Shown here: piece after piece, positions 5,001 to 51,596 of the stretch | How positions within the stretch are numbered: the stretch's first letter is position 1 | Layout: the number at the start of each line of letters is the position of its first letter | From: Eledone cirrhosa | Lineage: Eukaryota | Direction of reading: 5' to 3' | Length of the DNA stretch: 64,000 nt | NCBI GenBank assembly: GCA_964016885.1 | Contig: OZ024740.1 | Coordinates: forward strand, 419,430,001-419,494,000 | Made by a program: the position numbers and the translations under genes | The notes under the pieces: model-generated | Seen by the model: the letters and a program-made list of their open reading frames with translations, nothing else | Databases searched by the model: none | Told to the model about the DNA's origin: nothing

Positions 5001-5898
5001 GTAAATATCTTTAAGTCGTTTGGAAGCCTCGACAATGCAAATGGGTAAATCTCCGGGTAACAAGATCCGGTGGTGGAGAGAGAGATGTAAGTGGGTGTAC
5101 GTTGAGATGCGTGGTGTGTATAAGATGTGTAAGATGTGTAGAAGAATGAAGGGAAGAGTATAAAGGATAAAATAAAAATAACAACACAAGAGAGATTTAA
5201 TAGTCCCTATATATTTCGGATTCACATCCATCAACTGGGGGTTTTTTCCGGGGTGGGGGAAAGGTTGTCTGTCGGACAGGTGCGAAACGCGTCCTCCGCT
5301 GTTTGTTGTTTTGAATATCTGAGGTATTCGGCAGAGCGCGCGTGCACGTGAAATAGGGTCGGTCGGGCAGAGGTCAGCGGCCGAATGAGGGAGTGGGGTG
5401 GCGCTAGCTGTCAGTCCATTCTCTGCCTGTTTGTTAAATGTTACTGTGTGTGTGTGTGTGTGTGCGTGTGTTGTTGTCTCGCTTGAGTGTATGTGTGTGT
5501 GCGTGTGTTGTTGCCTTGTTCCTCTGTATTGGCAGTGTAGTATGTTCGTATGGTGGAATGCTACTGTGTGTGTGTGTAGTTGTCTCGTTTGTGTGTGTGT
5601 GCTTCCTTGATACGTAACGTGCCGACGTTTCTTTCAGTCGCTAGAATTGTGACAATGGGTCTTCCGTCTTTGTTTCCGCATTTGTCTATGTGTTTTTGGA
5701 AAGACGAGGCCCTGGTTTTAGTGTGTTCCTTGATCCGGATGTGCAAAGGTCGGATTGTGCTACCTATGTAGTATTGGTTGCACCTGTCACATTCTATCTT
5801 ATACACGACGTATGTGCGTAGGCAACAGTTCGCATGGCGTATCGGGCAGTCTCTGAGGGAGCATTGCCGAGGCTTCCAAACGACTTAAAGATATTTAC
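5001..5898 (-). mobile_element. Penelope-like element remnant: GIY-YIG endonuclease fragment with ~38-bp inverted ends
   Basis: Minus-strand VVYKIECDRCNQYYIGSTIRPLHIRIKEH...LRIKEA. 5001-5038 is the near-perfect reverse complement of 5861-5898. Flanked by TA/TG microsatellite. Confidence 0.85.
5205..5240 (-). ncRNA. Decayed minimal hammerhead ribozyme in the Penelope 3' repeat
   Basis: CCC-CAGUUGA-U-GGAU GUGA AUCC-GAAA-UAUA-UA-GGG. Stem II, GAAA, palindromic stem III and the AUA triplet are intact. The core has 2 mismatches to CUGAUGA. Confidence 0.55.
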
Positions 5899-7194
5899 TT
5901 ATTATTCCACAATGCTTCAAGCAAACTTCAATACTCTCATATATATATATATATAAAATCATCATCATTTAATGTCTATTTTTTCACACTTTCATGGGTT
6001 AGATTGGTCATCCATGTTATGAGACAAGTCAGGCCAGTTGGCCAGGCCATACCTTGCTCAAACAGAACTGTATTTTGGCTGTATTTCTTTACAGCTGGAT
6101 GTGACTTAGTGATTGGAGTGTTCAGCTCAAGATTTTAAGATGAATTTAAGACACTTTATTTCACATTACTCCAGTCCACTCAGCTGGCAAATAAGAGTTG
6201 TACTAGTAATTTAAAGAGCCAGTCTTGTCACAGTCTGTGTCTTGCTGAATCTCCCTGAGAACTCCATTAAGGATATATGTGTCTGTAGAATGCCAAGGCA
6301 CTTGCATATTAATTTCACAAGCTGGGTGTTCTGTTGATCAAATCAGCTGGAACACTTGTTGAAATCATCAGAGATGCAACAATTGTTGATGGTAATAGGT
6401 GGTGTTGGTGATGTTGATGTCTCCCTCTGTGGGTTTGTATTGATCCTACTATTGTTGGATTCATGTTGCTCCCTTGTTTTTTGTTATTTTTTTTTTTTTT
6501 TTCAGATCATTACCTATCCTCTTTAACATCAATAATCTATTCAAATTATGCTAAGATTGTCTTTCATCTTTCTGAGGTTAATAAAATATCTACCCAATAA
6601 CATACTATCAACATCATCATCATCGTTTTACGTTCAGTTTTCCAACTATGGTTGATTAAATCAAATCGCTCCATTCAAAATATTAGTGGCCTTCTGCCAA
6701 CATGAAAAATCATTATTATTCTTATTTGAAATGTAGTCCCCCCCAATGTAATGACTACAACAATAATCAATCATTATATATAATAGTCGAAAAAATCTGG
6801 TAAAGTACTCCTAGAGATGGAAAAAAGTGAACAGAGATGCCTGCAAGGAACCCTGCTGGATGAATGTGTTAACTATCATGTTTAGGAATCCCTGAATGCC
6901 AATTGGCATCTTTTAGAATTTAATTGTTTTTAGGCTGTGCTTGTTTATCTTCGTTTTCAATTAATTGTTCAAAATATTTATTATAATAAGTTTAAGGGTA
7001 ATTCTAAGTTATATCAGTGGTTGTTATAAGTCTTCCTTTCTCTTATGGTTTTATCTTATATTCTAAGAAAAATATTGAGGGGTGTAAATTGATACTAAAA
7101 AGAAAAAATAGTTTAATATCATATTTAATTCATCAACAGCATTGCTTATTTTACCTCCAGTTGGCCTTCTCTATTTATTTCAATTTTATTTTGT

Positions 7195-7390
7195 GTGGAT
7201 TGGCAGTATCAGCAGAGGGTCAAACGTCATGCTTTTCAGCAAAGAGTTACGGCCCTTTATGATCTGAGTTCAAATCCCGCCGAGGTTAACTTTGCCTTTC
7301 ATCCTTACGGGGTCGATAAAATAAAGTACCAGTAATGTACTGGGTAATTTCTGGCCTTGTGTCAAAAGTAGAAACAATTATTATTATTAT
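7195..7390 (+). mobile_element. tRNA-headed SINE family A (~190 bp, (ATT)n tail)
   Basis: A-box-like tggcagtatcgg, B-box gagttcaaatcc, conserved core ggttaactttgcctttcatccttacggggtcgataaaataaagtaccag. More than 20 copies in the window. Confidence 0.9.
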
Positions 7391-9511
7391 TTTTATATCC
7401 ACATATCTCTGTATATCTTGTTTGTTCGTTTTTTTTTCTTTGTTTCTCAACTATAAGTACTAGATACCTCCTCTAGTTTGTCATAGCTAACTAGCTCTAT
7501 ACGGACGTTTAAATTGATGTTTTATTTTTATATTCACATATCTCTGTATATCTATTTTTTTTTCTCAACTAAGAAGTACTAGATACTTCCCTTAGTATGT
7601 CATGGCTTACTAGCTCTATACGGATGTTTAAATCGATTAAATAAATGAATAAATAAATAGCAGTAACAAAAATACTTCCATGTGCATTTTTTCATCCTGC
7701 CATTACTTTAACAAAATTATAGATTGCTTCTCTTGGACAATTTGTTCATTCTAAAATCTCTCGACCAGCTAGATTCTATTTTCTTTACATTAAAGTATAG
7801 TTCTACTTCTATCTGCTATCCCTCTTAAGACCCAATGACTATACCAAATGACAATCACCTCTGTCTTGAGTGATTGCACTACAATCCAGGTTTTAGTCCA
7901 ATCTCAGATATATTACTGATCTCTGTATTATGCAAGTAGCTGGGAACCAACAGATTAAATTTATTACTTTTTCATTCACGTAGTGCCACATAGCATAAGT
8001 GTGTGTGTGTGTGTGTGTGTGCATGCATGCGTGTTGTTTTTAAACAACCAGAACCCGATAGAAAAGAATAAAGAATAAATCTTGCATAATAAAAAAGATA
8101 AAATGTGTTTAGATGGTTTTTTTTTGTCTTTTGAATGCAGAGTTGTTCAAGCTGAACATGTTACTTAAGTATGTTTTGTTTGTTTTTTTATTTTTGTTTC
8201 CTCTCATGACAAGCTAAAAGTAGACACATGTTACAAAAACTTGTGCAAACATCTGAATTTTCAAACTAACTCAGTCTATGTTAAGGTGGAAACAAAAATA
8301 GAGGAAAGAAAACAGTTCCAGAAACCAATTTTAACTTCAAATTTATCTCTTCCAAATTAAGACTAATTTTAATAAAGAATAAAGACAAATCTTAGCAGTG
8401 AGTAAAGTTGCAATTGTGTTGTATGATTATGAAATGCAATATTGTTTCCATAAAAAGACTTCGTCAAAATAGGGTTTTGGGATACACACAGACACACTGA
8501 TTAAATAATGTTGTTATCTTGGAAAGGGCAGTGGGTTGACTGTATCGAGAGAGTGTCTGACAACATACTTTGTGGCATAGTTACATACCTTTACGCTCTG
8601 AGTTCAAATCCCTCCAAAGTTAGCTATGCCTTTTATCCTTGCAGGGTTGATAAAATAAAGTCCCAGTAATGCACTGGGGCCAATTTAATCCCCCCCCCCC
8701 CCCCCAAAAAAAAGAATTGTTGGCCTTGTGCCCAAAAATTATAATTATTAATCCTGGGAGAGTTTCTGTGGGATTTTATTATGAATCATCTTCATTTACA
8801 TTTATTTAATATTTTTTAATGTTTTTTTAAAGGCTATAGGTGTTTACAATACAACACCTTTCCATTTGTCTTGGCCCCCTCCTCCTTCACTTCTCCTTTT
8901 CTAAGATCTACAACTATTTTTCAGATTTTCATCAGTTCATATCTTTCCCATCTAACATGTCACCCTTTACAATACTGCTTATACCAGTGGCATTATCTTT
9001 CTTGAATACTCAGTCATTATTTACAAATGGTTGGTGATAGTAACGGCATCCAGCTGTAGAAATCTTGTCGAACAAAAGGGTCAGGAGGACCTTCAGTTGT
9101 GTCAAAGACATGACAACCTCTCCTGTGCATTTGATGGAGTGTTGACCATACATAAAGCAAGACACAAATCCTTGGCCTCTCTGGGAGATCAGCGGCTCTG
9201 CTTCAGTATTGAGTGGGGGCTATGTAGATTCACCCCAACTCTTGCTAGCAGGGTAAGCAGGCCTTAAAACAATGATGACTGCTAGCAGGTAAAGTGGATG
9301 TTAAAAAGACGATGATGATGAGGGTACACTGAGACGTTTATAGGCTGACTATGAAGGAGTGATGCTAGAGCCATGAAATCTTGTATGCATTAATTTCAAC
9401 TCTTATAAATATTGCATTGTTTCTTTCCAGGGACTATATTAAAAAATAAGCTTCATTTGGTCATTTCAGGAGAGTATCTTGGTCAGCCTATGAACTTTTC
9501 AGCCAATCCTC

Positions 9512-9545
<34 letters not shown>

Positions 9546-9548
<3 letters not shown>

Positions 9549-12375
9549 GATTCAGATTTCTAGAATTCTGCGACGCCAATGACATGTCGATATGTAACAC
9601 AAACTTCAAAAAACCCGACAACCACCTGATCACCTATAGATCAGGGGAGCATTCTAGTCAGATAGATTTTATCCTCATCAGAGGACGTGACAGATGGACG
9701 GTCGTAAACACAGAAGCCTACCCTAGTGAGGAATGTACCTCCCAACATAGCTTAGTTGACACGGTCAGAACTAGACGAACATGGAAACAGAGGCCAACCT
9801 GGAGAAGAAAGATCTGGAAGCTGAAAGCCCCCTCAGCATGTAACAGATTTAAAGATATTTTACTCAACGCCTACGACAGTAAAGAAGAACAGATAGAGAC
9901 ATTCAATGTAGAAGAGCACTGGGAGTTCCTAAAAAATAACTTACTAGAGGCGACGGATGAGGTCTGTGGCTGGAGTAAGACCACAAGCAGGGGGAGAGTG
10001 GCTTGGTGGTGGAACAATAAGGTAGATGAGGCAGTTAAGGCCAAGAGACAGGCATGGAAAGAATGGAAGAACGGGGGGAGCAGGGTACATTACATAGAGA
10101 CCAAGAGGGAAGCTAGGCGACAAGTATACTTAGCTAGGAGGGAAGCAGAGGATAGAAAATTCAAGCATGTTTTGCAACGTGAGGACCAGAAACAGGAGGT
10201 GTTCAAGATTGCGAGTCAGTGTGTCAGAGAGAATTGTGATGTCATTGGAGAGAAGTGTATCCGGAATGATAAAGGTGAGCTTTCCCTCACAAGTGCTGAG
10301 AAGAAAGATGCATGGAAGAGCCATTATGATAGATTACTAAATGAGGAGAATGCATGGGAAGAAGAGACCCTACCACAAGTAACCCTATAGAGGGGCCAGC
10401 AGTACAAGTCAGCGGCAGCGTAGTAAGTAAAGCAATCAAAGATATGAAGATGGGGAAGGCAACCGGTCCATTGGCTATAGCTGCCGAGATGCTGAAGGCA
10501 TCTGGGTCTGTAGGTCACACTATAACCACACGTATTGTTAACCAGGTAATACTAGAAGGTGTCATACCAAAAGATTGGTGCAGTAGCATCATTGTCAACT
10601 GCTACAAAGGTAAAGGTGATGCACTAGATAGAGGAAACTATAGAGGTATAAAGCTGATGGACCAGGTCATGAAAATAACAGAAAGAGTTATAGCACAGTT
10701 GATTAGGCACCGGGTGAAACTAGATGAGATGCAATTTGGGCTTGTACCAGGAAGAGGCACCACTGATGCCCTCTTCCTTTGAGGCAATTACAGGAAAAGT
10801 ATCTAGCTAAAAGTAAGCCACTCTACTTGGCATTCGTCGATCTCGAGAAAGCCTTTGACAGAGTTCCACGTGCTGTATGTAATCTGGTGGGCTCTTAGAA
10901 AACTAGGAGTAGATGAATGGCTTGTGAAAGCTGTACAAGCCATGTATAGAGGAGCAGTCGGCAAAGTTAGGATTAGCAATGAGTATAGTGAGGAATTTAG
11001 CATACAGGTTGGTGTCCACCAGGGCTCTGTTCTTAGCCCTCTCCTGTTCATCATAGTCCTGCAGGCAATAACGGAGGAGTTTAAGACTGGATGCCCATGG
11101 GAACTCCTGTATGCTGATGACCTCGCACTTATAGCTGAATCTATGGTAGAACTAGAGAAGAAATTCCAAACTTGGAAGCAGGGACTAGAAAGAAAGGGTC
11201 TCAAAGTCAACATCACAAAGACTAAGGTCCTTGTAAGTAGACGAGAAAACAGAACCCAGACCCCCTCAGGGAAATGGCCTTGCTCAGTATGTAGGAAAGG
11301 TGTAGGTAGGAACTCCATTCTCTGCCCCAAATGCAAACAATAGGTACACAAGAGATGTAGCGGGATCTCAGGAAGCTTAATTTAGAATGTAGGCTTCACA
11401 TGCAGCAGCTGTGCTGGGACAGCAAGCAGCAAATAGCCACAGGAAACAAGTATCACCAATCTCTGGGAGGGCTCTGTAGAAACAGTAGACAGCTTCTGCT
11501 ACCTAGGTGACCGAATTAGCAGCGGAGGTGGGTGTTCAGAAAGTACAATAACTAGGGTAAGAATGGGATGGAAGAAGTTCAGGGAACTACTGCCACTGCT
11601 AGCTGCAAAAGGCTTCTCCCTCAAAATGAAAGGCAGACTGTATGATGCGTGTATCCGAACAGCAATGTTACATGGTAGTGAGACCTGGGTGCTGAAGGTG
11701 AAAGACTTACGTAGATTAGAGAGAAACGAAGCCTGCATGCTCCGATGGATGTGTAATAGTAATATACACGAATGACAAAGCATAAATGAATTGAGAGAGA
11801 GACTGAGCATAAGAGGAATCAAATGCTGTGTGCAGGAGAGGCGGTTGCGTTGGTATGGACATGTGATGCGTATGAAGGATGACAGCTGCATAAAAAGGTG
11901 CAGAGCACTAGAAGTTGATGGAAACCGCGGAGTGGGGAGACCCAAGAAGACCTGGGATGAGGTGATAAAAGTCGACCGTACCCAATTACACCTCTCAAAG
12001 GCGATGACACACGACCGTGACCTCTGGTGTCACGCAGTAATACAGAGTACCCGACCTCCCATGGGTACAAGCTGAAGCATATAGATAATATGCCCCCACA
12101 CCCTCCCACTGCAAGTGGTCGTGGAGGTGCTACAGCAAAAAAGCACCCAGCCCACACTGTAAAGTGGACGTGTAGGCGCCACGGAAAAAAAGCACCCAGC
12201 ACTCACTGTAAATGAGGTTTGTGTTAGGAAGGGCATCCAGCTGTAGAAATCAAGCCAAAATCAGTTCCTGTATGAGCAAGGCATGGTCAGCCGGCCAGAC
12301 ACTGCCCACAACAGGACAACCCGTCTAACCCATGCTAGCATGGAAGAACGGACGTAAAACGGTGATGATGATGAT
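9546..12375 (+). mobile_element. RTE-clade LINE, 5'-truncated and decayed (APE C-terminus, RT, 3' UTR, (GAT)n tail) inserted in (TA)n
   Basis: Frameshifted ORF pieces: TYRSGEHSSQIDFIL (APE), WWWNNKV, KGKGDALDRGNYRGIKL, QFGLVPGRGTTDA, GVHQGSVLSPLLF, LLYADDL (RT), RRLRWYGHVMR, GRPKKTW. Ends in gatgatgatgat. (TA)n on both sides. Confidence 0.95.
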
Positions 12376-22104: not shown

Positions 22105-22890
22105 ATCATCTTCGATTAACGTCTATCTTCCACGCTAGCATGGGTTAGACAGGTTTGTCCCATTTAGAGGCAAGTTTGGTCTCACTCTTATAGGAGTGTT
22201 TCTGGATAGTTTTCAACAACTGGATGCCTTTCCTAATGCCAACCATATTGACAGTGTGTGCTGGGTGCGTTTTGCCGTGTCTTTTACATGTCCACTTTAC
22301 AGTGTGGACTGGGTGCTTTTTGTCATGGCACGTACACGACCACTTTACAGTGTGGACTGGGTGCTTTTTGTCATGACACCTACACGACCACTTTACAGTG
22401 TGGACTGGGTGCTTTTTGTCATGGCACGTACACGACCACTTTACAGTGTGGACTGGGTGCTTTTTGTCATGACACCTACACGACCACTTTACAGTGTGGG
22501 CTGAGTGCTTTTGGGGCTGGTTTGATGATATCATCATCATCATCACTGTTTTACATCCATTCTTCCATGCTAGCATGGGTTAGACGGGTTGTCTTGTTGT
22601 GGGCAGTGCCCGGTCGGCTGATCTTGTCATGCTCATACGGGAACTGATTTTGGCTTTATTTCTACAGTTGGATGCCCTTCCTAACACCAACCTCACTTAC
22701 AGTGAGTGCTGGGTGCTTTTTTTCCATGGCGCCTACATGTCCACTTTACAGTGTGGGCTAGGTGCTTTTTTGCAGTGGGAGGAGGTGGACGCATATTGTC
22801 TATATGCTTCAGCTTCGACTTGTACCCATGGGAAGTAGAGTCTTCTGTATTACTGCGTGACACCAGAGGTCACAGTCTTGTGTCATTGCT
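22105..22890 (-). mobile_element. Two tandem 5'-truncated copies of the RTE 3' end
   Basis: Reverse-complement match to ~12000-12375. catcatcat tails at ~22105 and ~22530. Confidence 0.85.
22292..22500. repeat. 48-bp minisatellite expanded inside an RTE 3' UTR (~4.5-5 units)
   Basis: ccactttacagtgtggactgggtgctttttgtcatgRcacStacacga at 22292, 22340, 22388, 22436, 22484. Confidence 0.9.
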
Positions 22891-23076
22891 TTGATATAAA
22901 TATATATATATATTGTTATACTTTGGGAGGGTCATGTTGCCAATAAGAAACACACGCACCAGTTGCTTTCACTTCAATTTATTATATATTTATAAATTTA
23001 TAAATCTACAAACTTATAAATTATAAATTTCTGGTTGGTTGGTTGGTTCCACAACCAGATAGTTGTTTATATATAT

Positions 23077-23121
23077 AGTCATAGTCCTTTCGTCACACAC
23101 TCTGTGACCTCTTCAGTGACT
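23077..23121 (-). ncRNA. Minimal type I hammerhead ribozyme (mirror copy in the left palindrome arm)
   Basis: Exact reverse complement of 23226-23270. Confidence 0.75.
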
Positions 23122-23225
23122 GGGGATTTCTTCGTTTCTGTGCCTTTTCTTTCTTCTATCCTACGCCAGAAAAATGGCGTAGGATAGAAGAAAGAAAAGG
23201 CACAGAAACGAAGAAAGGAATCCCC

Positions 23226-23270
23226 AGTCACTGAAGAGGTCACAGAGTGTGTGACGAAAGGACTATGACT
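23226..23270 (+). ncRNA. Minimal type I hammerhead ribozyme
   Basis: AGUCA-CUGAAGA-G-GUCACA GAGUG UGUGAC-GAAA-G GA C-UA-UGACU. Stem I AGUCA/UGACU, 6-bp stem II, very short stem III, CUA cleavage triplet. Confidence 0.75.
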
Positions 23271-26200
23271 ATATATATAAACAACTATCTGGTTGTGGAA
23301 CCAACCAACCAACCAGAAATTTATAATTTATAAATATATAATAAATTGAAGTGAAAGCAACTGGTGCGTGTGTTTCTTATTGGCAACATGACCCTCCCAA
23401 AGTATAACAATATCGGTTTCAACACACGATTTCAGATAAAGAATCTTGCTAAACAAATTCAGAAACGAAATATATATATATATATATATATATATAGGAA
23501 ACATTATTTTTTAAAAAGCCCCAAAGCATATGTTTTTATTTTCTATACATGTCATGTGTGTAGTAAACAACAAAAACAAATCTTTTAACATCAAAAAGAA
23601 TAGTTTTCTACTTGACTGGTTTCACCTAAAATAACTTTTTGAAAGTTTTTTGTGCTTAATTTTCTTGGAAGCAAGGACAAACTAACATAACAATGGTGAT
23701 GTTATAGATATGATTTCATGTTCAAGGTTACAAACCTCAGTATATGAAAGAGAGTTTGTATAAATGGTGTTAATAATTCACAGACGTTAAACGATGATGA
23801 TATCAAATAACATATATGTCATATATCAAATGTAATATAGATTGTTGTTTTGGTATTTACATACTATATGTTAAAATTGCTATAAAATATGAGTCTAGTC
23901 TAAAGCTAGAATTGAACTACCCACTCCCCCATATAATTTATCTTTAGTATGGGCCATTTCTGTAACATCTGGACTACTAATGGTGTTATAAACATTGTTA
24001 TTTAAAGCTATATAATTCAGAATGTATATAGTTATTCTAAAACCATCATCATAAGAATGGCCTGAAGAATAGCTACTTTATAGATTTCATTACTCCTTAA
24101 AGCTTTTCCGATTGCAGAAACCTCATAAGTTTAAGGCCCAATTTGAAACAATTGACCTAATTGTCCCTGGATGTATTACAGTCATCTTATTGTTTAAAAT
24201 ATATCTAAATGCAAGCTGTCAGGTTTGGTAAATTTAAAACGCCATTTGCTTGTCACTTCAGAGTTTATTTAGGTGCCTAATTATGTCAATAAAGAGGGTA
24301 AGCAAAAACATAATTCATGGAATGGTTGGCTGTCTCCAACAAAAGGTTATAATTACATCAAAACAATGTACAAATCTTCTTATAATGTTGCTATTACTTA
24401 TCTCTTAAAATGCTATTTACCACTGTAAATATTGTCCATCTCAAAGCATGGCTGTGGAAAGAAATTTGTTTAACAACTTCATGGTTACAAGTTCAATCCC
24501 CCAGTCTTCGACAAAAGTCTTTTTACTGTAGCTCTGGCTTGGCCAATACCTTGTTATTGGAATTGGGTAGTTGTTAACTACACATATTCCTGTTTTGTAA
24601 ATATAAATATGTCTGTGTCCATATTTATGTTTAGAAGTGTAAAACTAATGTCAAAAAGTGTATCTTCACAATTTGATAAATTTACATTGATAAATTAAGT
24701 ATCACAGTAAAATGTGTACTAGGGTTGATATGATTGATTAGAAACTTTGAATGTAGTGCCCCAGTGTGGTTGCAGTTGAATGACTGAAACCAGTCAAACA
24801 ACTTTAGATCCCCTTCAGTCATGAATGACCATGGGATTTGCACCTGGAAAGTTCCCCTCTGAGGCACAGGTAGGGCAAGGTATTTTGTGGAAGACCAGCA
24901 GTCACCCATACCAGTCTCCCCTCTCCATGCCACTGATGTTGTCCAAGGGAAAGGCAATGGCCGATACAGGTTGGCACCAATGACGTCGCAACTCATTTCT
25001 ACAGTTGAGTGAACTGGAGCAACATGAAATAAAGTGTCTTGCTCAAGAACACAACGCACCACCTGGTCTGAGAATTAAACTCACAACCTTACGATTGTAA
25101 GTCCAATGTTCTAACCGCTAAGCCATATGACTTCATAGAGATTATATTCAAATATATAATACATACTTCCTAACTCTGCTAGACATTCTTTAAATTATCT
25201 GTGAATCAGAGAGGATAAGCAGCAAGATTCATTATTTTCACCAATTTATATTTATCACATAATTAAATTGTAAATTTGGAATTATTGTAGTTAGATAAGT
25301 GTTATATATTTGAATTATCTTTACAAAACTTTTGTTGTTTCCTCCCAAATGAATAGTACACCATCTGTTATAGAAAAAAATATTTTTCTTATAACAAACT
25401 CAATTCTTTAAATCTATTCATAGAAATATTTCATTTATCTTCCTTCTTCATAGTGGCATTGAGCAGTTTTAGTCAACCAAGATTCTCTCTCTTTTGCAGT
25501 ACTAAATCCTATTGTATCCTTGAATACAGTAGAGTACTGTCTTGCATTGATGGCTATTTTGTTAACACTTTTTGTTCATGTTCTATCATAGATTTATGTC
25601 TTTTATTCTGTTTACAATTTTCTTCATTTGATAAATTGATCTTCTGATATACTCATGGAGACTATCATTGACATGTTTCCCAAATTTAATCCTTTCATTA
25701 CCATATTTCTAATGAAATACACCACCTATGTTGGTTAATTCATTTTCTAAATAATCAATAGTTTGTAGGGATTTAGGATGATGATGATGATGATGAACTA
25801 ACCATATTATTAAACAGGTGTTTAGAATATAACTTAAAGTTATTCTTCCATAACATTATTTTATATTTAAATATGAATGGTTAGGTGTGTCATCTTAGAA
25901 TTGTTGTTTTGGGCATGTTGGTATCAAGGGGTTTAAATGGTTTTCAGTTTTTCAAAGCAATATTGTAACTGTCTCTTGCTATATTCAAGTTTACAAAACA
26001 TTTCTGTTGGTCTTGTACCTTAATATTATACTTTCAGTTGCTATACACGTTTTTTTTTTATGTTTTACAAAATATTTTAGAATAAATTGTGTATTACACA
26101 AAACAGAAATTGTTAAACAAATTCAATTTTGTAACGCTTGGAAGACTAAGATGATTAGACAAGTTTAGATTTTAAAACAGCTATACTGTCCTCAATGTAA

Positions 26201-28590: not shown

Positions 28591-28659
28591 ACATATATAT
28601 ATACGTGTGTATATATATATATATAATCATCATCATCGTTTAACGTCCATCTTCCAAGC

Positions 28660-29039: not shown

Positions 29040-30350
29040 GTAATAATAATAAATTTGGAGACTAAAATCAAAAGAGGGCTCGATAAGGATAAATATATAT
29101 CAAATATATAAGAACCCTAGAGCAAATATTTATTAAAATAACAGATTAAAGTTTAAGCAAAGAATCGCTGCTTTTAATAAATGTATATATATATATAGTA
29201 ATAATTTGGCGGAATTTACATTTAATTTACAATTACATTTAACAAACAAACACCTATTGACTATAAACGACTCAAAATAATCCCATGGTTAATAGCTGTG
29301 AGTAACAAACAACACATACACATACATATGAACTACAACACAAAAACACTTAAATGAAAATCACATACCCAACTCTATCACGTGCTTTGCATTACACCTT
29401 ACATAACAAATACCTACATTATCACCACATGCCTCTCTAACAAACTGCACACTATCTTAAACATTTATAAAAATTATAACATGCTCTAACACCCCACACA
29501 AAATGTTTATTTCAACTGCATTATAACTCTTTCCTCATACATGCCTTATTGACTGTATTGACTCCTGCATTGTACACCAATTTTCCTTGCCTATAACTTT
29601 TTTGCCTGTATTTTTTGGCTTGTGCTTTTTACTTATACCCCTTACACTTCCAGCCAGTGCTGCCTGTAATTGTGTTCTTTCAAGCTGAACATCTTTTTAA
29701 CTCCTGACTCTCCACATGATGCTTTTGACACTAATAACACTTATGTACCCTAAATGTTCTAAATGACTAGGATTTTAGTAACATGTTTCGACATTCCTTA
29801 TGCTCCGATGATTCCAGACTTCCCTCTGGAAGAAACAATTGTCAGCAAATAAATGTTCTAAACTAAAATTTGATCGTTTTAACACTTTGCATTTATATAT
29901 ATATATATATATATATGACTTATTATCTTCGTTTTTTCGTTCATTGCCAGAGAACGTCTCTATGCACCACCTAAGAGAACATTAATCTACGACCTCTTTT
30001 ATACCATAAACGTGGTTTTGTCTTTGCGCGTAATTGTTTTTCACCGCTCCTATTAATGACGTATTATTCGTTTTTTCCCGTTCTTTGCCAGCGAACGTTA
30101 CCACGAACCAAAGTATCGTCTTCCTGTCTTCCTCCGGTTGCAACGTTTTTTGAAATATCCAGTTCTGCGTTTACAGATTGACTTTGTTAGTTTCAGAAGA
30201 TCCCGTTAAGGGTGAAAGCAGCGATTCTTTGCTTAAATTTTAATCTGTTATTTTAATAAATATTTGCTCTACGGTTCTTATATATTTGATATATATTTTC
30301 CTTATCGAGCCCTCTCTGGATTTTAGTCTTCAATTTTATTATTATTACTA
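29038..30350. mobile_element. Composite non-coding element with ~135-bp diverged inverted arms (29038-29175 / 30215-30350)
   Basis: aaatttggagactaaaatcaaaagagggctcgataagg...gcaaagaatcgctgcttt versus aaagcagcgattctttgc...ccttatcgagccctctctggattttagtcttcaattt. Internal (TA)n tracts delimit a nested ~700-bp piece. A further fragment of the arm lies at ~50039-50076. Confidence 0.75.
29801..29847 (+). ncRNA. Minimal type I hammerhead ribozyme with a U4C core change
   Basis: UGCU-CCGAUGA-UUCCAGA CUUCCC UCUGGAA-GAAAC AAUU GUC-AGCA. Perfect 7-bp stem II, palindromic stem III ACAAUUGU, GUC triplet. Confidence 0.75.
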
Positions 30351-33300
30351 CATATATATATATATAGTTTGGTATCTAATTCAGTGAGACTATTTTGAGT
30401 GTTGTGAAGGTGACAGGCTGAGATGACACACTGTAAATAATTGTTTCTACTTTTGGCACAAGGCCAGCAATTATCCCAGTGTATTACTGGTACTTTATTT
30501 TATCGACCCTGTAAGGATGAAAGGCAAAGTTAACCTCGGTATCCACACTGTAAATAATGCTAACAGATTAGGTCACCTAGCCTTCAAAAATATACTCAGC
30601 TATTCTCTGTTCCTCAGACAGTGACACTGTCATTTTGTTAATAGTATTATAGCATCACATTGAATTTTACAGATTATTCACTTGGCATTTAACTGTCTTT
30701 TTATTCAAATGAGACGCAGAAGGCATTTATATGTGTATCATTAGCATTGTCATGTCTGCTGTTTTGCTTTTCCATGCTGGCATAGATTGGAGAAAACCTT
30801 TACATGGCAGTTTTTCTACAGCCGGATGCTCTTCCTGGTACCGACCCATTATCTTTAAACGTGGTATATACCACTCATCATTGTTGAACTAGTTAGCTGG
30901 GTTGTATTTGATTGTTTATGTAGGACATAGACAAATATCACCACTTACTTTAAACTGTTATGAAGATATGCATGGAGACACACACACACAGGGCTTGATT
31001 TATCAGGTGGAGGGGATGAATGCCCTGGGTACCCCTTGTCAAACAGGGCTCTTTTTAGGAACAGCCATGGATGTCCTCCACCAAACCTGAATTGCCCTGG
31101 GTCCCCAATGTCTAAATATGGCCCTGAACACATACACACACATACATGATGGACTTTCTCACATTTTCCACATACCATGTTCACTCGCATTAATTTATCC
31201 AAGACTTACAGTCAAAACACTTGCTCAAGGTGTCATGCAGTAGGATCAAACCTGAAACTATGTGCTTACAAAGTAAACTTCTTAACATAGCTATGCCTCT
31301 GTGTGTCTATGCCTGTATGGTTGTATGAGTATATGTGTGTGGCAGTGTGTCTGTGGAGGGGGAGTATGTCTGTATGTGTGTCTGTGGAAGTGTGTATATG
31401 TGTGTATGTATGTAATTATACTCCAATTCTTTCAATGTTTTTAGTTCAAACTTGGCAATAATTTTCATTAACAGCAGTTTTATCCCTGTAATTTTAATAG
31501 AGTAGCATAGTTATTCAAATCATTGAATCAAGTATTGAAAATGCTATCAAAAGATTTCTCAAACATAAATCGTTTACTATTCTCTAAATGAAAAGCTGTC
31601 TTTTAAAATAGTATTTTTATCTTAGAAATTCATGAGAATTCATTTAATTTGACAGGAGTTAGTAATATAACTAACTTTCTCATTATTAATTTGGTGTTTG
31701 GAACATAGCTTAACAAAGATTCTTACAGAAAATCATAATGGAAGGCTTTTAGATAAATATAAACACTTTAAAAAGGACAGTTTTGTATTGTAGAAACAAG
31801 GGCAGTTTCATGTGGTTTGGTATTGAAAGAGTTAATAAAATGAGAAATCAAAGTGACGGCTCAGAAATGTAAAAGCTATTATGTTTACCTTTTCTTAAGC
31901 AATCTAATCAGTCTTCAATTCAACTGATGGTTTTCTGCTTGTGGTGGCACCAAAAATTCTTGTTGCTGCTCTTTTATCATACTTTCTAGTTTAATGTACC
32001 ACTTTCTAATAGTATATCTTGACCCCTCCCCTCACACACACACACCTGTTCTAGTTGTAGGTATTGAACATAAATGCATTTTTCAGTCTTAACATTATAC
32101 TTTTAGTATCTACAATTTTGTGATCTTTACTCATTATATTGTATGTATGTAAGGACTCATAATCCCCGGGGGAATCGAAGGGGTACCATATTGACATATG
32201 GCATTTCTAGGGCATTTTTAAAAACCCAGTGAAGCCCATCTCCTCTCCAGGTCTGAATACTGCAGATTTCTTCCAGAGAAGAATAGAGAGTGAGAAAGAG
32301 ATATAGAGGAAGAATTGATCCCAGTACTAAACTGGTACTTTTTTTTTATTGACCTTAAATGGATGAAAGGCAAAGTTGACCTCAGCAGGTTTTGAACTCA
32401 AAGAACAGAGAGTCGGAACAAATACAGCAAAGCATTCAATCCAACATTCTAACATCTCTGCCAATTCACCGCCCTACTTATTGTATTACACACTCCAAAT
32501 ACATTATCACAACTAATAATAAGCATGTATATATTTCAGTATACTCTGTTGGATGATGATGCTGCTGCTATTGAGCAAACAATACCGGAAATGAATCTCA
32601 GTGTTACTTTAAGTAAAAAGTCTAAGTTAAATGTGTTTGGTATGACAGAAATAGATAGTAGTATTAATAACAATAGAGAGACAGTTGCTGCTTAACTTCT
32701 CAGAGTTTGCCATTGTATGAAAGAAATCCAACTCCATACAATCAATGCAAACTTCTATAAGAATTCCTTCATTTGTTTGTCTTGTTTTTGTAGTTTTTTT
32801 TAATTAAGGTTCTTCAAGCAAAATTGAAGATAATATTGTCTGAGTAAATATATTCTAACATTGCTGGAGCTAAACAGAAGTATTCCTTATCTAGAGCAGT
32901 TGTTCCCTAACTTATTTTGTAAAGGAATCCTTCTATAACAATTGTAGAACCCACCACCTCTACCCTAATTTTATTAAGACATTAAATGTAATAATTGTTT
33001 AAAGAGAGAATTTGATCGTGTAAAAATGAAACATAAAATAAATGTTTTCTTCACTCTTATTAAAAGATATTCAGAATATGTGAACAGAACTCACTTTAGA
33101 GAACACTTATCTAGAATGCTCAGCAATTCTGGGAAACATTAACCTACATGTGGCTTCAGATTTACATGTAGGATGTTGAGCGGTTGGTATGAGGATGGTA
33201 CATGTTACATACCATTAAATATAATGAATAGTTTCAGTTACTGGTAGCATCTAAAGTGTGTCTGAGACTCATCAGGCCAGTGCTTATCCTGATTTCCATG

Positions 33301-35406: not shown

Positions 35407-35835
35407 GGATGAGATTTGAAGGAGATGACTGCTATTTCTAGCAGGTAAAGTGACCATGTAGAGGTTCCATAGTTTTATCTTTGGGCTGAGATTTGAGGGT
35501 GATATCTGCTATTTCTAGCAGGTAAAGTGACCACGTAGAGGTTCCATACAGTGGGATGAGATTTGAGGGTGATATCTGCTATTTCTAGCAGGTAAAGTAA
35601 CCATGTAGAGGTTCCATACAGTGGGATGAGATTTGAGGGTGATATCTATTTCTAGCAGGTAAAGTAACCATGTAGAGGTTCCATACAGTGAGATGAAAGT
35701 TGAGGGAGATGACTGCTATTTCTAGCAGGTAAAGTGACCATGTAGAGGTGTCATAGTTTTATCTTTGGATTGAGATTTGAGGGAGATGTCTGCTATTTCT
35801 AGCAGGTAAAGTAACCACGTAGAAGTTCCATAGTA
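35407..35835. repeat. Tandem array of six ~67-78-bp units derived from a dispersed repeat
   Basis: gagatttgaggg...ctgctatttctagcaggtaaagtRaccaYgtagagg repeated. Single inverse relatives at ~4072-4135 and ~13329-13387. Confidence 0.9.
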
Positions 35836-36362: not shown

Positions 36363-36847
36363 TAACAATCAAGAATATTTCTATGTGTGTGTGTATTGTG
36401 CCTGAAACTGATCCATACTAAAACTAGATTCTTGGTAATTGATTTAGAAGATGTATATAGTGATAGGGAAGTGATATCTAGTCTGTATCCAGCCCCTTCT
36501 CTACAAGCTATGTTTGTGTTATTTCGGTGTTGAGGGCAGCAGGGGTACAAGTGCCAAAAGGTGTATATGTGTCAAAACTGTAAAGTGTAGAAATATGAGA
36601 TGCTCTTCAAATTGCACTTGACAACATTGTCTTTGATGTTGGGAACAGTTTAAAAGACAGGTTTATAGTGTTGGGGTTGATGTACTTGGTGTTAAGACAA
36701 AACACAGACTGGTTTGATGACGATGCTGTAATCATATCCATGAATATATATACCACATCTTGATAGTTGTGGTGTCACAAGAGAGAGATACCAAGTTAAG
36801 TTGTTTAGTTTTATTTTGTTCTTATGTTCTTTTTATTTAGAGTACGT

Positions 36848-37087
36848 GTGATGTCCAAACAAGTATCCTCCACCTCCCTCTATCTTACTCTCTGCCTCTT
36901 GGTCCTCTGTGATGTCCAAACAAGTATCCTCCACCTCCCTCTATCTTACTCTCTGCCTCTTGGTCCTCTGTGATGTCCAAACAAGTATCCTCCACCTCCC
37001 TCTATCTTACTCTCTGCCTCTTGGTCCTCTGTGATGTCCAAACAAGTATCTTCCACCTCCCTCTATCTTACTCTCTGCCTCCTGGTC
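36848..37087. repeat. 61-bp tandem repeat, ~4 near-identical units
   Basis: gtgatgtccaaacaagtatcctccacctccctctatcttactctctgcctcttggtcctct at 36848, 36909, 36970, 37031. Confidence 0.95.
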
Positions 37088-39060: not shown

Positions 39061-39138
39061 CACATCCTTGTATAAACTACCATCAATGGAAGTTTGTTAT
39101 AACAAACTTCCATTGATGGTAGTTTATACAAGGATGTG
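39061..39138. repeat. Perfect 78-bp spacerless palindrome followed by a partial third copy (39146-39173)
   Basis: cacatccttgtataaactaccatcaatggaagtttgtta|taacaaacttccattgatggtagtttatacaaggatgtg. Confidence 0.95.
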
Positions 39139-41012: not shown

Positions 41013-41065
41013 GAGTTATCTTCTGATGAGGAGACAATAATCTCTGAAATGCTTAAAGGTAATTT
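41013..41065 (+). ncRNA. Minimal type I hammerhead ribozyme (slightly decayed)
   Basis: GAGUUAUCUU-CUGAUGA-GGAGA CAAUAA UCUCU-GAAA-UGCU-UA-AAGGUAAUUU. 10-bp stem I with G-U pairs, intact core, stem III one change from AUGCAU. Confidence 0.7.
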
Positions 41066-42893: not shown

Positions 42894-43705
42894 GGAAACC
42901 CACTCTACTACCCCAAGTATTGAGTACTTTGGTGCGTTATGGTCCACCTGGTTCCTTACCACATTTCCTTCGTTATATATATATATATATATATATAAAC
43001 TCTTATATTTATTATTATTACTACTACTGCACTTTGCAGCATATAGTTACGTCCCTTTACATTCTGAGTTATCTTGCCGAGGTTAGCTTTACCTTTCAAC
43101 CTTACGGAGGTCGATAAAATAAAGCCCCAGTAATTCACTGGGGTCGATTAAATCGCCCCCACCCCCCAAAAATTTTTTTAGGGATTTATGCCTAAATCAG
43201 CAACCATCGCCAAGGTTAACTTTGTCTTTCATCCTTACGGAGTCGATAAAATAAAGTACCAGTAATACACTGGGATAATTGCTGGCCTTGTGCCAAAAGT
43301 AGAAACAATTATTATTATTACTACTACTAGTAGTGGCACTCCATCAGTTATGACAACGTGTATTCCTATTGATACAATCAACCGAACAGCCTGCTAGTGA
43401 AATTAACATACAGGTGGCTGAGCATTCGACAAACATGCATAGCTTTAGCGTAGTTCTAAGAGAGACTCAGCGTAACAGGGCTGGCATTTCAAATTACAAA
43501 TGCAACTCATTTTTGCCAGCTGAGTGGACTATAGCAATGTGAAATAAAGTGTCTTGCTCAAGGACACAATGTGCCACCAGGAATTGAACTCACAACATTG
43601 TGATCGTGAGTTGAATACCCTACCCACAAACCCAGGCACCTTCACATTACTACTACTAAATATATATATCTAATGTATTTATTGATTATGGACCATAATG
43701 TTGTA

Positions 43706-43758
43706 CCTACGTACGACATTATGGCAGACCCGACCTGTTCATCACATTCACTTGCAAT
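43706..43758 (+). repeat. Isolated inverted copy of the Helitron Rep motif 1 coding segment
   Basis: Near-exact reverse complement of 44172-44225 (TYVRHYGRPDLFITFTCN). Confidence 0.85.
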
Positions 43759-44140
43759 GGATGATCAGATTGTCACAGGAGTCAGGTATCTCACATCCAT
43801 ATGGACCTTAAATCAATTATCTGTGAAGTGTACGTAACTGGTGGATAATCAATAAAAGTATTTATGTGAAACTTTGTCATTATACACTCTACTTTAGCAC
43901 AGGTGCTCTTATTTGTACTACCTCCAGTAATCCATAACATTACTAAGTAACCAAAACTATATATATATCTCACATCATCATCACCGGTTACCTCCATTTT
44001 TCCACGCTAGCATGGGTTCGACGGGTTGTCCTGTTGTGGGCAGTGTCCGGTCGGCTGACCATGTCTTGCTCATATGGGAACTGATTTTGACTTAATTTCT
44101 ACAGCTGGATGCCCTTCCTGGAACAAACCTCATTTACAGC

Positions 44141-46534
44141 AACAGTTCTGCCCCGATCTCCTCCACTTTGGATTGCAAGTGAATGTGATGAACAGATCGG
44201 GTCTGCCATAATGTTGTACGTAGGTCATAGCATCCTGCGTTCTCTCGTGCATGTAGCGCGGACTTCTGGTGAAGGTGGAGGGGAAAATGCAGACTTTTTC
44301 TACGCTGCTGGGAGCTGTGTCATTGTTGATGGCATCTCAGAGATGGATGCAGCTCTCGGACCGCAGTTGCCTTTGGTATGACCGTATGAAACACAGTCTC
44401 TCCGATTCCATTTTGCGCACATATCAACCACGAATTGCTGAAGTAGGTTTCTTGACTGGTGCAGGTGATTGAAGGAATCGTGGCGAACCATGAAGCGGTA
44501 GGAGTAGAAAGCCATGCATGAACTGGTTTTTTGACGGAGTGTTGAGGGTTTACTGGATTATGCTGGTGAATTCCGTACTGATAGCCGTCCTCACCATTTA
44601 CAAAGAGCAGTGGATACTGGAGCACATCGTAAGACGTATGTGTTTCGCTGAAGAGTGCTATCTCGACGCTTGAGGACAATGTTTCGTGGATTATGCTGAC
44701 TCCCATGCATAAGTACAGCGATTTCATTGCATGCAGGATAATTATACCGACCCGGATGCTCCCCAGATGGCATTTTCGAGGCATCAATTGCCACATTAAA
44801 ATTGGCTGTGATATCTGCTTCCAAGGCATACTTGAAGCTAATGACAACTGTTTTTTGTGTGCAGAATGTCTTGCAGTTTCCTTATAAGCTCGACGTTGGT
44901 ACCAGGTGAAATGGAGTTCCTCTTGGCTGCCTGCTCGTTGACATTCCCAACAAAGTACAGCTGAAGAAATTGAGGTTCTTGATTGGCGGCAGGTTGGAGG
45001 GATTCAATTCTATGGTACACCTGACCTTGCACCTTAAATGTGGGCATAAATCCGCCTTCCTTGACAATGTTCGCCCCGAAAGATGTCATTTGGAAAGCAC
45101 AGTTATACCTCCGGATGTAAGTCAGGAAATGCTGTGACTCCGCAGTACTGCCTGAATATAGGAGCTTCAACGGTTGTGGTGGATCCTCCAGGGGACGTAA
45201 TTTTACTTTTCCATTTGCGCAACAAGCCAGGTGTTTCTCTGGGCCACTTTTTTGCATTGCAGAAAGAGCACGTCTTTGACATACTCCCAATTCGCATGTC
45301 TGGATGGCCACTGTAATCAAAGTCAGGGTTGTACTCGAATGCTTTCAAGGACCATCGTGAGCAACACAACCTTGAAATACCCTGCCCAAAGGCCCTTCGT
45401 TGAGCATTACATTGTAGTCAAATGTCTCGTTCTTTCGAGGTCTGTGTAGCTCGCGCAGCAGCAGTATTCGCAACATCCGTACTCCGACGTCTTTTACGCT
45501 GGTCTTCCGCCTCGGCAGCTCGTGCAACAGAAGTTGATGCGGCATTAGCGGTTCGGCGAATGGTTCGTTGATTGTCTGTTTCAAGTGCACTTCTGGTGGC
45601 AGCACGTTTAGCATCTTGCGACTGTCAAATAGCAGATTCCACTGACGATTCGTTTGCCCGTCCTGTTCTTGTTGTTGCTGCTTTCACAGTTTTTTGGCCA
45701 ATGGAGTATCTCTTCCTTCGAGGCATGACCTAAAAGCAGGACAAAGTACACTAAAACTCACTGGTAGAGTAAGGAGTAAACTCGTCAGTAAATTAAAAAC
45801 CGATGCATGTGATTTCCGAACGGTTGACTATGTAATTGCTAAGCCATGAGTGCTGTCTTAACCAGGGTATGTATAGGGAGAGGGGTAACAGTAAGAGCAG
45901 CGGTTGGAATGAGTGTAAGTTAGTGAATATGTTGTCACTGAAAAAAATGGCGTAAGTGAAACGCCACACGCACATAGACACACACACTCATGCACAAACG
46001 CACGCAAACTCATGCATGCATGCATGTGTGCACGTACACACACACACGTTAATAGATTTAACTCTTAGTGGAACGCTGCACGAACACACATACACGCACA
46101 CATGTTAATTAGTTATAGCTTTCCTTCCCCTCTTCCACTGTCATGTATCAAACACAGCGTCACTCTCTCTCTCTCCCGCTATCCCCCTCTTTTAGTCTGT
46201 CTGTTTCTTTCACTCTCACTCTTTCTCTTTATAACTCACTACATTTCTCCCCTCTATCGAAAAATGCTGTGACTAATGGGGAGGAGTATAGAGCCACTTC
46301 TTCACTTCGCCTCTCCGTTTCTTTCTCTCCCCTCTCACTCCCTCATTATGTACAGACATTGGCCACTTCACTAATTCAATCCCTAGGACTAAATAATTTG
46401 AAATTTTTTTGGCTCAAAACCCTCACAGGGCCATACGGGTTACACGTGTAAAGTTTGAAAAAAAAACGGTTGGGTACTTCTCGAGTTTTAGGGAAACAGA
46501 TACACAGACATTCTTTATTTTATATATATATAGA
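44141..46534 (-). mobile_element. Helitron, 3'-truncated and decayed: 5' end plus N-terminal RepHel coding region (ATG at 45726)
   Basis: 5' TCTATATATATAAAATAAAG terminus. Frameshifted peptides MPRRKR..., CSFCNAKKWPRETPG, CCANGKVKL, IRRYNCAFQMTSFGA, FKVQGQVYHRI, GEHPGRYNYP, YDVLQYPLLF, LLQQFVVDM and Rep motif 1 YGRPDLFITFTCNPKW. Confidence 0.92.
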
Positions 46535-49990: not shown

Positions 49991-50074
49991 ATATATATAT
50001 ATAATTGAAACATATATATACATACATATACACACATATTCTTTGCTTAAACTTTAATCTGTTATTTTAATAAA

Positions 50075-50117
<43 letters not shown>

Positions 50118-50129
50118 TACATACATACA

Positions 50130-50605
50130 TAAGTTAACGGACCTAGGATGGGTTTCACTGCTCGGACCTGTTGCATCTCAGCGTACTCAATAGGTAATGT
50201 TAAATAAACTCCCAGAGTAGACACATAGTTATTCACTTCAATACAACGCCTGTAAATGGGTTCCTTCAATTATTCCCGTACTCAAGTTTTGGCCACACTT
50301 AATGCAGCAATGGAGTGCACAGCACCACTGTCCGCATATATTATGCAACAATGCACAATCGGCACATGTAGCTTCATCAGCGGGTTTCCCCTAATCAATA
50401 ACCAATCAATCGACAGAATTCGACTCCAGTCCATGTTGGCTATGACTGAATGTGATGGCCAACACAGTAAAACGTTAGCAACTGAAATCTCTGTGTCATC
50501 ACAATGCCGTCCCCCAATTGGCTACTGATTCAGAAATTTACGTGATGGCAGGAGACGAAATTCAAATAGTTCCGCACCCGCCATACTCGGCCAATGTATC
50601 TCAAA
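50130..50605 (+). mobile_element. Possible internally deleted mariner/Tc1 remnant
   Basis: EIQIVPHPPYSANV (50557-50598) resembles the mariner PHPPYSPDL motif. Boundaries uncertain. Confidence 0.5.
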
Positions 50606-51306
50606 CACAAATTAACAAGTTAGTGAAAAATTGGTTATTAGAAAAATTCATTCTCCAATCGCTGTACAATAAAATGGTAACATTCGGCTCCAGTCTCTCT
50701 CTATATAGTTGTTGAAAGGTGTTCTGTTTAAAGTGGAAAAGAACCACGATTAAAATAAGGTACTCAAAACATCAAGTAGAGAGGGTATGTGAATATATTA
50801 AAAACTTCCTCTTACATGACTAGACCTGTTTCCTTCAGATAATTCATTAGAAAATTATGAATTTTTGCCAATTTGTTACTGGTCTGGTAGGATGATGGTG
50901 GGGTATAGTATGGTATGGAGTGGTGTGGTAAGATGGTGTGGTGTGATGGTATGATGATTGTGTGGTGTGATGGTATGATGGTAGAGTGATGTGGTATTGT
51001 ATGGAGTGGTGTGGTGTGGTAATCAACAGTTGTAGGAGTGACCATAACCTGTCTTTTAGCCACACTTACAACTATCCACCAGTGCACTAATCTTGGCACC
51101 ACTTGACCAGTTACTTATATACAGAATTGGCAAAGTTCCATCACTTTCTCATCAATTCTTAACTGAAAGAAACAGAACTAATCCTGTAAGTTACTATATA
51201 TCATCATCATTTCATAGATCTTTTCCGTGCTGGACGGAACTTTTTGAGGTTTTTACTAGATAACCTTTCTGTCACCAAACTTCTAATCACTTCTTATGAC
51301 ACACAC

Positions 51307-51596
51307 GGGTATGGTGGGCCTATTCTAAATCAGATACACACAGCCTATAAATATACATACATGGATGAGAGTTGGGTTTTGCTTGAATAACATGTCTGAT
51401 GAACAGATCGGGCTAGAGTCTGGTCTATAGCATTTACATGGTTCCTGAGCCACCCATCTGTGAAACGGTCGTAACTGTGTATAATCAATACAGACCTTAA
51501 TGTGAAACCTTGCTTGGTTTTCAATATATGTGTATGTGTGTATATATATATGTAAAGGCCGTGTGCATCTGGTTTAGAATAGGTACGTCATATCCC
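51307..51596 (+). mobile_element. Old inverted-repeat-bounded element with a strongly decayed hammerhead-like motif (51435-51481)
   Basis: 51307-51345 is an imperfect inverse of 51557-51596. Internal UACAUGGU...CAC CCAUCU GUG AAAC GGUC GUA ACUGUGUA keeps stem I and GAAAC..GUA but lacks an intact CUGAnGA. Confidence 0.45.

Follow-up and report, generated by a model that had tools for sequence, protein, structure and literature searches.

Hammerhead motifs in 64 kb of Eledone cirrhosa DNA as probable remnants of Penelope-like elements, many beside TA repeats

Insertions of Penelope-like elements (PLEs) have been described as carrying an inverted truncated copy and a 30-40-bp tail, with a bias toward TA targets (Craig 2021, PMC8557442). 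A pseudo-long terminal repeat (pLTR) and tail holding the start of the open reading frame (ORF), together with head-to-head palindromes, have been reported as well (Arkhipova 2013, PMC3846280), and in rotifer PLEs the pLTR and tail span the first 12-22 ORF codons (PMC3846280). Solo and opposite-strand pairs of minimal hammerhead ribozymes (HHRs) have been interpreted as truncated PLEs (Cervera and de la Pena 2014, PMC4209133). Among cephalopods, Hydra-1_Obim is an Octopus PLE with an HHR and a (TA)n target (Craig 2021 Files S1 and S2; PMC8557442), and 31 recently active Penelope-like families have been counted in O. vulgaris. Non-autonomous PLEs with pLTRs are known in Chlamydomonas (PMC8557442), and retrozymes have been proposed to be non-autonomous PLE derivatives (bioRxiv 10.64898/2026.07.22.740005). 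Here, we compare with these systems a 64,000-nt stretch of Eledone cirrhosa DNA (assembly GCA_964016885.1, contig OZ024740.1, positions 419,430,001 to 419,494,000, forward strand; hereafter the window), in which six places carry hammerhead motifs.

Microsatellites and interspersed repeats abound in this animal DNA, and the common short repeats of the window are ones that we presume to resemble octopus short interspersed elements. An earlier note had described five loci of unrelated sequence on one plan (inverted ends, a minimal hammerhead and a (TA)n target), plus an isolated hammerhead at 41013-41065, and had read them as a population of separate non-coding ribozyme elements moved by Penelope. 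Our best explanation, held with considerable confidence, is that locus 1 is a 5′-truncated insertion of an endonuclease-bearing PLE, that several further PLE families likely left their 3′ ends at the remaining loci, and that locus 3 is probably a short non-autonomous unit copied by the same machinery. A separate non-coding population is mostly unneeded, because inverted ends, a tail and a minimal hammerhead in (TA)n are the published anatomy of 5′-truncated PLEs. The plan itself is already in print: every element of it has been published, and these loci are further members rather than a new architecture.

Loci 1 and 2 fit the truncated insertions of endonuclease-bearing PLEs point by point (PMC3846280, PMC8557442 and Frangieh 2024, PMC11167929). 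Shared are the head-to-head copy, the tail on one arm, the ORF start in the pLTR or tail (locus 1), the hammerhead in the pLTR, and the AT-rich or (TA)n target. The two loci differ from those insertions in having tails of 41 and ~56 nt rather than the usual 30-40 and target duplications that are unreadable in TA; locus 1 further differs in its internal deletion and dead hammerhead core. The parts of locus 1 are the following.

5001-5860, minus strand: main copy, a 5′-truncated PLE with endonuclease remnant, CA-rich 3′ region, decayed hammerhead and pLTR
5597-5872, minus strand: GIY-YIG endonuclease remnant (Pfam PF01541, E 1.5e-4)
5208-5237, minus strand: decayed minimal hammerhead (core CAGUUGA, changed at two positions; 3 bp in stem I and 4 bp in stem II; stem III AUAUAU)
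5861-5939, plus strand: inverted copy, in which the final 38 nt of the main copy are followed by a 41-nt tail (5899-5939)

Read along the minus strand, locus 1 passes from the endonuclease through a CA-rich stretch to the decayed hammerhead, then ~200 nt and a TA run; the (TA)n at 4978-5000 adjoins the 3′ end of the main copy, and another at 5939-5955 follows the inverted copy. The endonuclease remnant has a C-x4-C-x7-C linker and the cysteines and histidines of the CCHH type, and lacks ~25 C-terminal residues. It has 716 relatives at E<=0.001, the best at 52-58% identity and the closest named ones being the Octopus bimaculoides proteins P0006 (58%) and P0008 (52%). These relatives are proteins with a reverse transcriptase (RT) plus a GIY-YIG domain at the C-terminus (RT was found in seven of the eight scanned, the eighth being a chimeric gene model); the RT is absent from locus 1 and is missing by truncation. 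The gene model P0006 fuses a PLE endonuclease region to a MAP7-family host protein and is probably a gene-prediction chimera.

The other end of the ORF also occurs at this locus. An ATG at 5912 in the tail opens MLQANFNTLI, the first 9-10 ORF codons, which ranked 1 of 1611 ATG-open peptides of the window when scored against the starts of 11 relatives. Two full-length 859-aa relatives begin MLQANYKTLL and MLQANYNLLI and agree with the tail at 6/9 and 7/10 residues. Because its ATG peptide matches the ORF starts of relatives, the 41-nt extension is taken as a PLE tail reaching into the ORF of the next unit. Protein homology at the endonuclease and at the ORF start thus bears out, for locus 1, the proposed link to Penelope, and by its sequence the locus is an endonuclease-bearing PLE. 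The statement that only locus 1 is coding stands for GIY-YIG, which was found there alone among the five loci and the 41013 motif, but it had missed the ORF codons in the tail.

As for clade, locus 1 shares with Nematis-like PLEs a short linker before the CCHH GIY-YIG domain and an RPLH motif (Craig Fig. S2, PMC8557442); its C-x4-C-x7-C linker, compared by eye, is unlike their CX2-5CxxC. On the short linker and by eye it may tentatively be called Nematis-like. Hydra-clade PLEs have an endonuclease without CCHH, a CxCX5C linker and a DKT motif, and since CCHH is present, locus 1 does not belong to that clade.

Taken alone, the hammerhead motif of locus 1 is not above chance, because it is seen only at a stringency where shuffled sequence equals it. 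It sits, though, where 7 of 9 testable relatives have theirs: among 12 metagenome loci related to the locus 1 endonuclease, a sense minimal hammerhead occurs in seven of the nine with at least 340 nt downstream, and the remaining three are too short downstream to test. In the hammerheads of these relatives the stems and the 3-8 core pair covary, 92% being paired (0/500 shuffles). The 3-8 pair is C-G in four of the seven and G-C, U-A and A-U in one each. Several of the related metagenome loci have a similar ORF start after the hammerhead. The non-C-G pairs occur in relatives L002, L007 and L009 and are missed by a CUGANGA descriptor; a U3-A8 pair has been reported (PMC4209133), and natural G-C or A-U pairs were not found in the accessible part of that paper.

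A second head-to-head insertion is locus 2.

22914-23168, minus strand: inverted copy, with hammerhead at 23077-23121
23171-23469, plus strand: main copy, with hammerhead at 23226-23270 (core intact, 5 bp in stem I and 6 bp in stem II)
23414-23469, plus strand: tail of ~56 nt; (TA)n flanks the locus at both sides

The arms are identical save two indels, and one is ~56 nt longer. The two hammerheads are the top two matches (E 0.02) of a model built from the seven relatives of locus 1. Furthermore, 52,038 raw reads under the same species label match from 23171 on and share a different sequence upstream (agreement 0.88); because these reads continue upstream of 23171, the family of locus 2 must exceed the present copy in length. 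A frame of 27 codons that begins with an ATG at 23388 and extends through the tail can be likened to the ORF start of rotifer PLEs; protein searches found no homologue of the peptide (a weak negative), so the likeness is unproven. The stretch before the hammerhead was considered as the C-terminus of an ORF and dropped, since the upstream continuation is CA-rich and looks untranslated. An exact search for the hammerhead in viral contigs gave 0 matches. Locus 2 is likely a head-to-head PLE stump.

The hammerheads of the window were counted with a strict descriptor (intact CUGANGA/GAAA core, stem II of at least 4 bp, stem I of at least 2 bp, one bulge tolerated) against 40 block-wise dinucleotide shuffles of the 64-kb window. 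It found five motifs at four loci, all with intact cores.

23231 plus and 23116 minus (both arms of one insertion), 28331 minus, 41023 plus, 51396 plus: strict hammerheads

The shuffles averaged 0.12, and 0/40 reached five. When both stems had to be at least 4 bp, three motifs remained (0.05 in shuffles), or four (0.125) with the locus 4 motif, which has one core change. Looser settings that admit the locus 1 motif gave 2 vs 0.60 (3/40 shuffles) and 4 vs 1.85 (4/40), and the bare core pattern without stems was barely enriched (7 vs 3.1; 3/100). The strict hammerhead motifs of this window exceed chance, and the earlier density of about one element per 10 kb holds for its 64 kb. A whole-window Rfam scan had no hammerhead family among the matches listed, which were dominated by microsatellite hairpins, nor did four narrow scans of loci 2, 3 and 4 and the 41013 motif. 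Minimum-free-energy folds did not single the motifs out, z falling below -2 for locus 4 only. Antisense hammerheads at 5255-5305 and ~29770-29810 were rejected for lack of a core, and a motif at 3647, matching under the covarying core, was dropped as within the shuffle range.

Stem III had been described as mostly palindromic or nearly so, and four of six indeed self-pair fully: AUAUAU (locus 1), AUGCAU (locus 3) and ACAAUUGU (locus 4) are exact palindromes, and ACGGUCGU (locus 5) pairs with itself using two G-U. AGGACU (locus 2) and AUGCUU (41013) do not, each leaving two positions unpaired. The motifs share with the minimal type I hammerheads of metazoan PLEs (PMC4209133) an extra base before stem II and a short or palindromic stem III, as well as the occurrence of many unrelated families per genome, mostly solo, with some opposite-strand pairs 100-700 bp apart. 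Departures from those hammerheads are a long stem II insertion at locus 5, a U4C change at locus 4 and a 2-bp stem I at locus 3. The hammerheads are predicted to be weak and dimer- or protein-dependent, and to be dead at locus 1 and at a sister of locus 5 near 43.8 kb.

Locus 3 has a geometry of its own.

28157-28561, minus strand: 339-nt unit in ~1.2 head-to-tail copies
28166-28222 and 28505-28561, minus strand: direct repeat, a 57-nt block with a period of 339 nt
28298-28333, minus strand: hammerhead with intact core, 2-bp proximal stem I and AUGCAU
28561-28592, plus strand: inverted tail, a copy of ~28468-28500 (~33 nt), then (TA)n

The inverted tail copies the ~33 nt that come after the first 57-nt block. 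In PLE terms the locus is a partial tandem with a tail-only inversion, its unit being 339 nt rather than ~3 kb. It is multicopy, with summed contig depths in run X1 of 11,202 and 42,417 against 13-21 in unique bins. Depth is also raised in a second organism (organism B), where a contig across 28183-28442 (36 differing letters) overlaps another across 28291-28518 (43 differing letters), so that the short 339-nt spacing is probably a family trait. Protein searches found no coding match in the unit, which folds no better than shuffles (z -1.2).

Animal non-LTR retrozymes (PMC7229834; bioRxiv 10.64898/2026.07.22.740005) resemble locus 3 in having an AT-rich, non-coding, multicopy unit with a type I hammerhead and more than one unit per insertion. 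Unlike them, locus 3 holds ~1.2 units and a single hammerhead, so that tandem units each with a hammerhead are not seen; its motif is minimal rather than canonical, and it is known here from DNA alone. Its PLE-type inverted tail and TA target are not described for retrozymes in the accessible parts of those sources. The locus is probably a short non-autonomous unit copied by PLE machinery, and, as the only one with such geometry, it is the best candidate here for a non-autonomous retrozyme-like unit. A bolder proposal, which we favor less than its negation, is that it represents a cephalopod retrozyme copy, multicopy and shared across species, that arose from circular or tandem RNA and was inserted in TA with the two-start-site signature of PLEs; several such families might coexist. 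No account of these families or of a cephalopod retrozyme was found in the literature covered; the supplementary files of the 2026 preprint lie outside that coverage, as does the repeat library of Octopus vulgaris, and these may hold them. Six short motifs had no match to a cephalopod family in the accessible part of the Craig 2021 supplement.

Locus 4 is more complex.

29040-29174, minus strand: left arm of the outer element, 135 bp, 95% identical to the right arm, ends flush within 3 nt
29198-29893, plus strand: inner insert of 696 nt, between TA runs 29184-29197 and 29894-29916
29801-29847, plus strand: hammerhead (core CCGAUGA with one change, 7-bp stem II, ACAAUUGU), 46 nt from the insert end
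29917-30351, plus strand: body and right arm of the outer element, right arm at 30215-30348
30194-30217, plus strand: weak hammerhead-like stretch (CAGAAGA..GAAA) where the right arm starts, its cleavage triplet lacking the U

No inverted ends of its own and no ORF were found in the inner insert. Abundance is unequal within the locus. In run X1 the summed contig depth, which is not equal to copy number, was 368,050 and 825,310 in the arm and body bins and 8,692 and 32,903 in the hammerhead-bearing middle; the corresponding values in organism B were 22,779 and 6,071 against 7.6 and 48. Arms and body were far deeper than the middle in every one of the four runs, and in organism B the middle was close to background. 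The simplest reading would make locus 4 two nested elements, with ends and hammerhead coming from different ones. A target duplication is unreadable in its TA runs. Between microsatellites at 50038-50075 lies a 38-nt micro-copy of the outer arm, beginning just past the hammerhead-like GAAA stretch.

The last of the five loci and the remaining motifs are as follows.

51387-51481, plus strand: hammerhead of locus 5 (core intact, a bulge in stem I, a stem II region of 58 nt, ACGGUCGU)
51307-51596, no strand assigned: outer imperfect inverted repeat of locus 5, best match 51319-51359 with 51543-51583 (85%)
43760-43876, plus strand: decayed sister of the hammerhead piece at locus 5, with a broken core and with stem II arms and 3′ flank preserved
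41013-41065, plus strand: isolated minimal hammerhead (core intact, 10 bp in stem I and 5 bp in stem II)

The sister matches locus 5 at 78% over 58 nt (E 7e-8), its loop diverged and its stem arms retained, and lies inside a TA-bounded segment (43670-43957) without the inverted ends of locus 5. It is fused to a 54-nt inverted copy (43705-43758) of the broken end of a Helitron Rep remnant at 44172 to ~45680 on the minus strand (Pfam PF14214, E 1.3e-20 for 44172-44450). That the locus 5 motif is Helitron coding sequence read backwards was considered and rejected: a 16-letter match is real and the remainder does not align. Protein searches with the open antisense frame of locus 5 found nothing, a weak negative. 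Both locus 5 and the inner insert of locus 4 are like Hydra-clade PLEs in their (TA)n target, a hammerhead ~100-200 nt from the consensus 3′ end and a 3-4-bp stem III, a likeness of format only, as there is no sequence match to a listed family and no Hydra endonuclease remnant was seen. The 41013 motif is isolated, as had been said: its nearest (TA)5+ run is 1,783 nt away, and no inverted ends were found within 2 kb.

How far, then, is a plan shared? Inverted ends occur at all five loci but are of differing kinds. An inverted copy with a tail on one arm is seen at loci 1 (38 + 41 nt), 2 (~56-nt tail) and 3 (tail-only inversion), and such a 5′-truncated copy was not found at locus 4 with its flush arms, at locus 5 or at 41013. 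Loci 1-3 keep the proposed plan; locus 4, likely two nested elements, and locus 5, whose TA-rich tracts lie inside rather than outside its inverted ends, fall away from it. The proposed link to TA targets is right, and the proximity of hammerheads to TA runs is modestly enriched: four of the five strict or one-change loci have a (TA)5+ within 250 nt, against a background of 23% (p=0.012), or 6/7 (p=0.0009) once two decayed motifs are included post hoc. Inverted pairs, mostly of high-copy repeats, enclose 25% of the window. Because the census of pairs missed those at loci 2, 3 and 5, which were found by separate comparison, it serves as a rough background only, and no enrichment of inverted ends is claimed. 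A TA-flanked segment at 57945-59032 has 50-bp inverted arms (96%) and no hammerhead match, and thus inverted ends in TA do not imply a ribozyme; by eye, its interior is the 3′ end of a LINE (long interspersed nuclear element) plus an internal microsatellite. The named loci are unrelated in sequence, as described (best pairwise E 0.03), except that locus 5 turns out to have its sister.

A route to such insertions can be proposed by analogy with other PLEs. The GIY-YIG endonuclease would cut both strands of AT-rich DNA, in this case (TA)n. Reverse transcription would begin within an RNA exceeding one unit in length, at two sites separated by a few tens of bases and close to where the ORF of the next unit starts, and would proceed back through the hammerhead-bearing pLTR and halt early. 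Two such copies might then be joined head to head, leaving inverted ends with the extra tail on one of them; this joining is our own suggestion, and self-priming on an antisense template is a published alternative origin of the inverted pair (PMC3846280). Cleavage of AT-rich DNA on both strands, and two internal RT start sites whose spacing equals the tail, have been described, as has hammerhead cleavage that needs protein and is dispensable for insertion in vitro (PMC11167929). A role in favoring microsatellite targets has been suggested for the cysteine linker (PMC8557442).

Several observations weigh against deriving all of these loci from PLEs. Profile and protein searches found no protein homology for loci 2-5 or 41013. 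The hammerhead model built from the relatives places locus 1 (E 6) and 41013 (E 5-6) at noise level and does not list loci 3, 4 and 5. At locus 2 the upstream continuation is known for 30 nt, too little to reveal an ORF, and the ATG frame ranks 410 of 1611 against the starts of the relatives. At locus 4 the depth step could reflect a 5′-truncation gradient instead of nesting, and the flush arms and absent tail also fit a DNA transposon of the miniature inverted-repeat (MITE) kind. No empty site was among the joints listed. N- and C-terminal profiles from the locus 1 relatives also had no match among 145 peptides tested from the other loci.

An alternative is that the inverted ends of loci 4 and 5 belong to TA-targeting MITEs, into whose internal TA runs the unrelated hammerhead pieces were inserted later. 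It is a serious contender, if somewhat short of an even chance, and it is compatible with our explanation of the hammerhead pieces, differing on the arms only. The 135-bp flush arms of locus 4, their abundance in organism B where the insert is near background, the armless sister of locus 5 and the ribozyme-free segment at 57945-59032 all speak for it. Against it, a hammerhead-like stretch opens the right arm of locus 4 and the left arm starts inside its GAAA, as a truncated inverted PLE copy might, although the observation is post hoc and the stretch has no U at its cleavage site. That most loci are instead independent, non-coding and non-autonomous retrozyme-like elements mobilised in trans by PLE proteins seems unlikely. 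Locus 3 would suit it well, with its 339-nt period, single hammerhead, multicopy depth, lack of a coding match and organism B pieces across 28183-28518, and so would the absence of an ORF from locus 5 and the 696-nt insert of locus 4 and the published retrozyme units of 51-972 nt, described as PLE-derived (bioRxiv 10.64898/2026.07.22.740005). However, locus 1 is coding at both ends, the family of locus 2 runs on upstream, 5′ truncation already predicts the absence of ORFs, a tandem hammerhead pair occurs at no locus, and the fold of locus 3 is unremarkable. Of the separate population once proposed, then, the geometry of locus 3 alone is in keeping, and loci 2 and 4, the latter with ends and hammerhead seemingly from different elements, do not fit.

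Chance is the least probable account, and we regard it as very improbable that the pattern amounts to weak hammerhead look-alikes amid abundant microsatellites and repeats. The sheer share of the window near a (TA)5+ run or inside an inverted pair lends it some color, as do the chance-level motif of locus 1, the Rfam results and the 16 letters that the locus 5 core shares with the antisense strand of the Helitron Rep remnant. It is largely refuted for loci 2, 4 and 41013, and runs against the strict motif count, the relatives of locus 1 with covarying hammerheads at the same place, and the stem arms that the locus 5 sister keeps despite its diverged loop. The derivation from PLE insertions set out above is thus the reading preferred here.

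Other features of the window include the following.

39061-39138: perfect 78-nt palindrome overlapping a 31-nt tandem duplication
54286-55812, plus strand: glycosyltransferase family 92 protein (Pfam E 5e-43), in a frame of 509 codons without interruption
~9500-12075, plus strand: broken non-LTR retrotransposon with RT domain (Pfam RVT_1, E 1.7e-15), beginning at a (TA)n run
25686-25722 and 22735-22770: joints stepping back 36-37 nt in numerous contigs and reads; loose ends pile up at 25686 and 25722, and short repeats or alignment artefacts are possible
27233-27581 (period 29 nt), 22251-22512 (48), 35482-35832 (70) and 36847-37087 (61): minisatellite arrays

If these loci are what we take them to be, the TA microsatellites of this genome collect the ends of several PLE families, sometimes nested. 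Such stumps would confuse repeat annotation, as they resemble MITEs or orphan ribozymes. The mobilisation of retrozymes by PLEs has so far rested on co-occurrence and pLTR phylogeny. Were locus 3 indeed a retrozyme copy, it would supply direct structural evidence for the mobilisation of animal retrozymes by PLE enzymes, and a retrozyme-like unit with a PLE footprint would offer a handle on which enzymes move these elements and on whether the hammerhead plays a part in their cycle.

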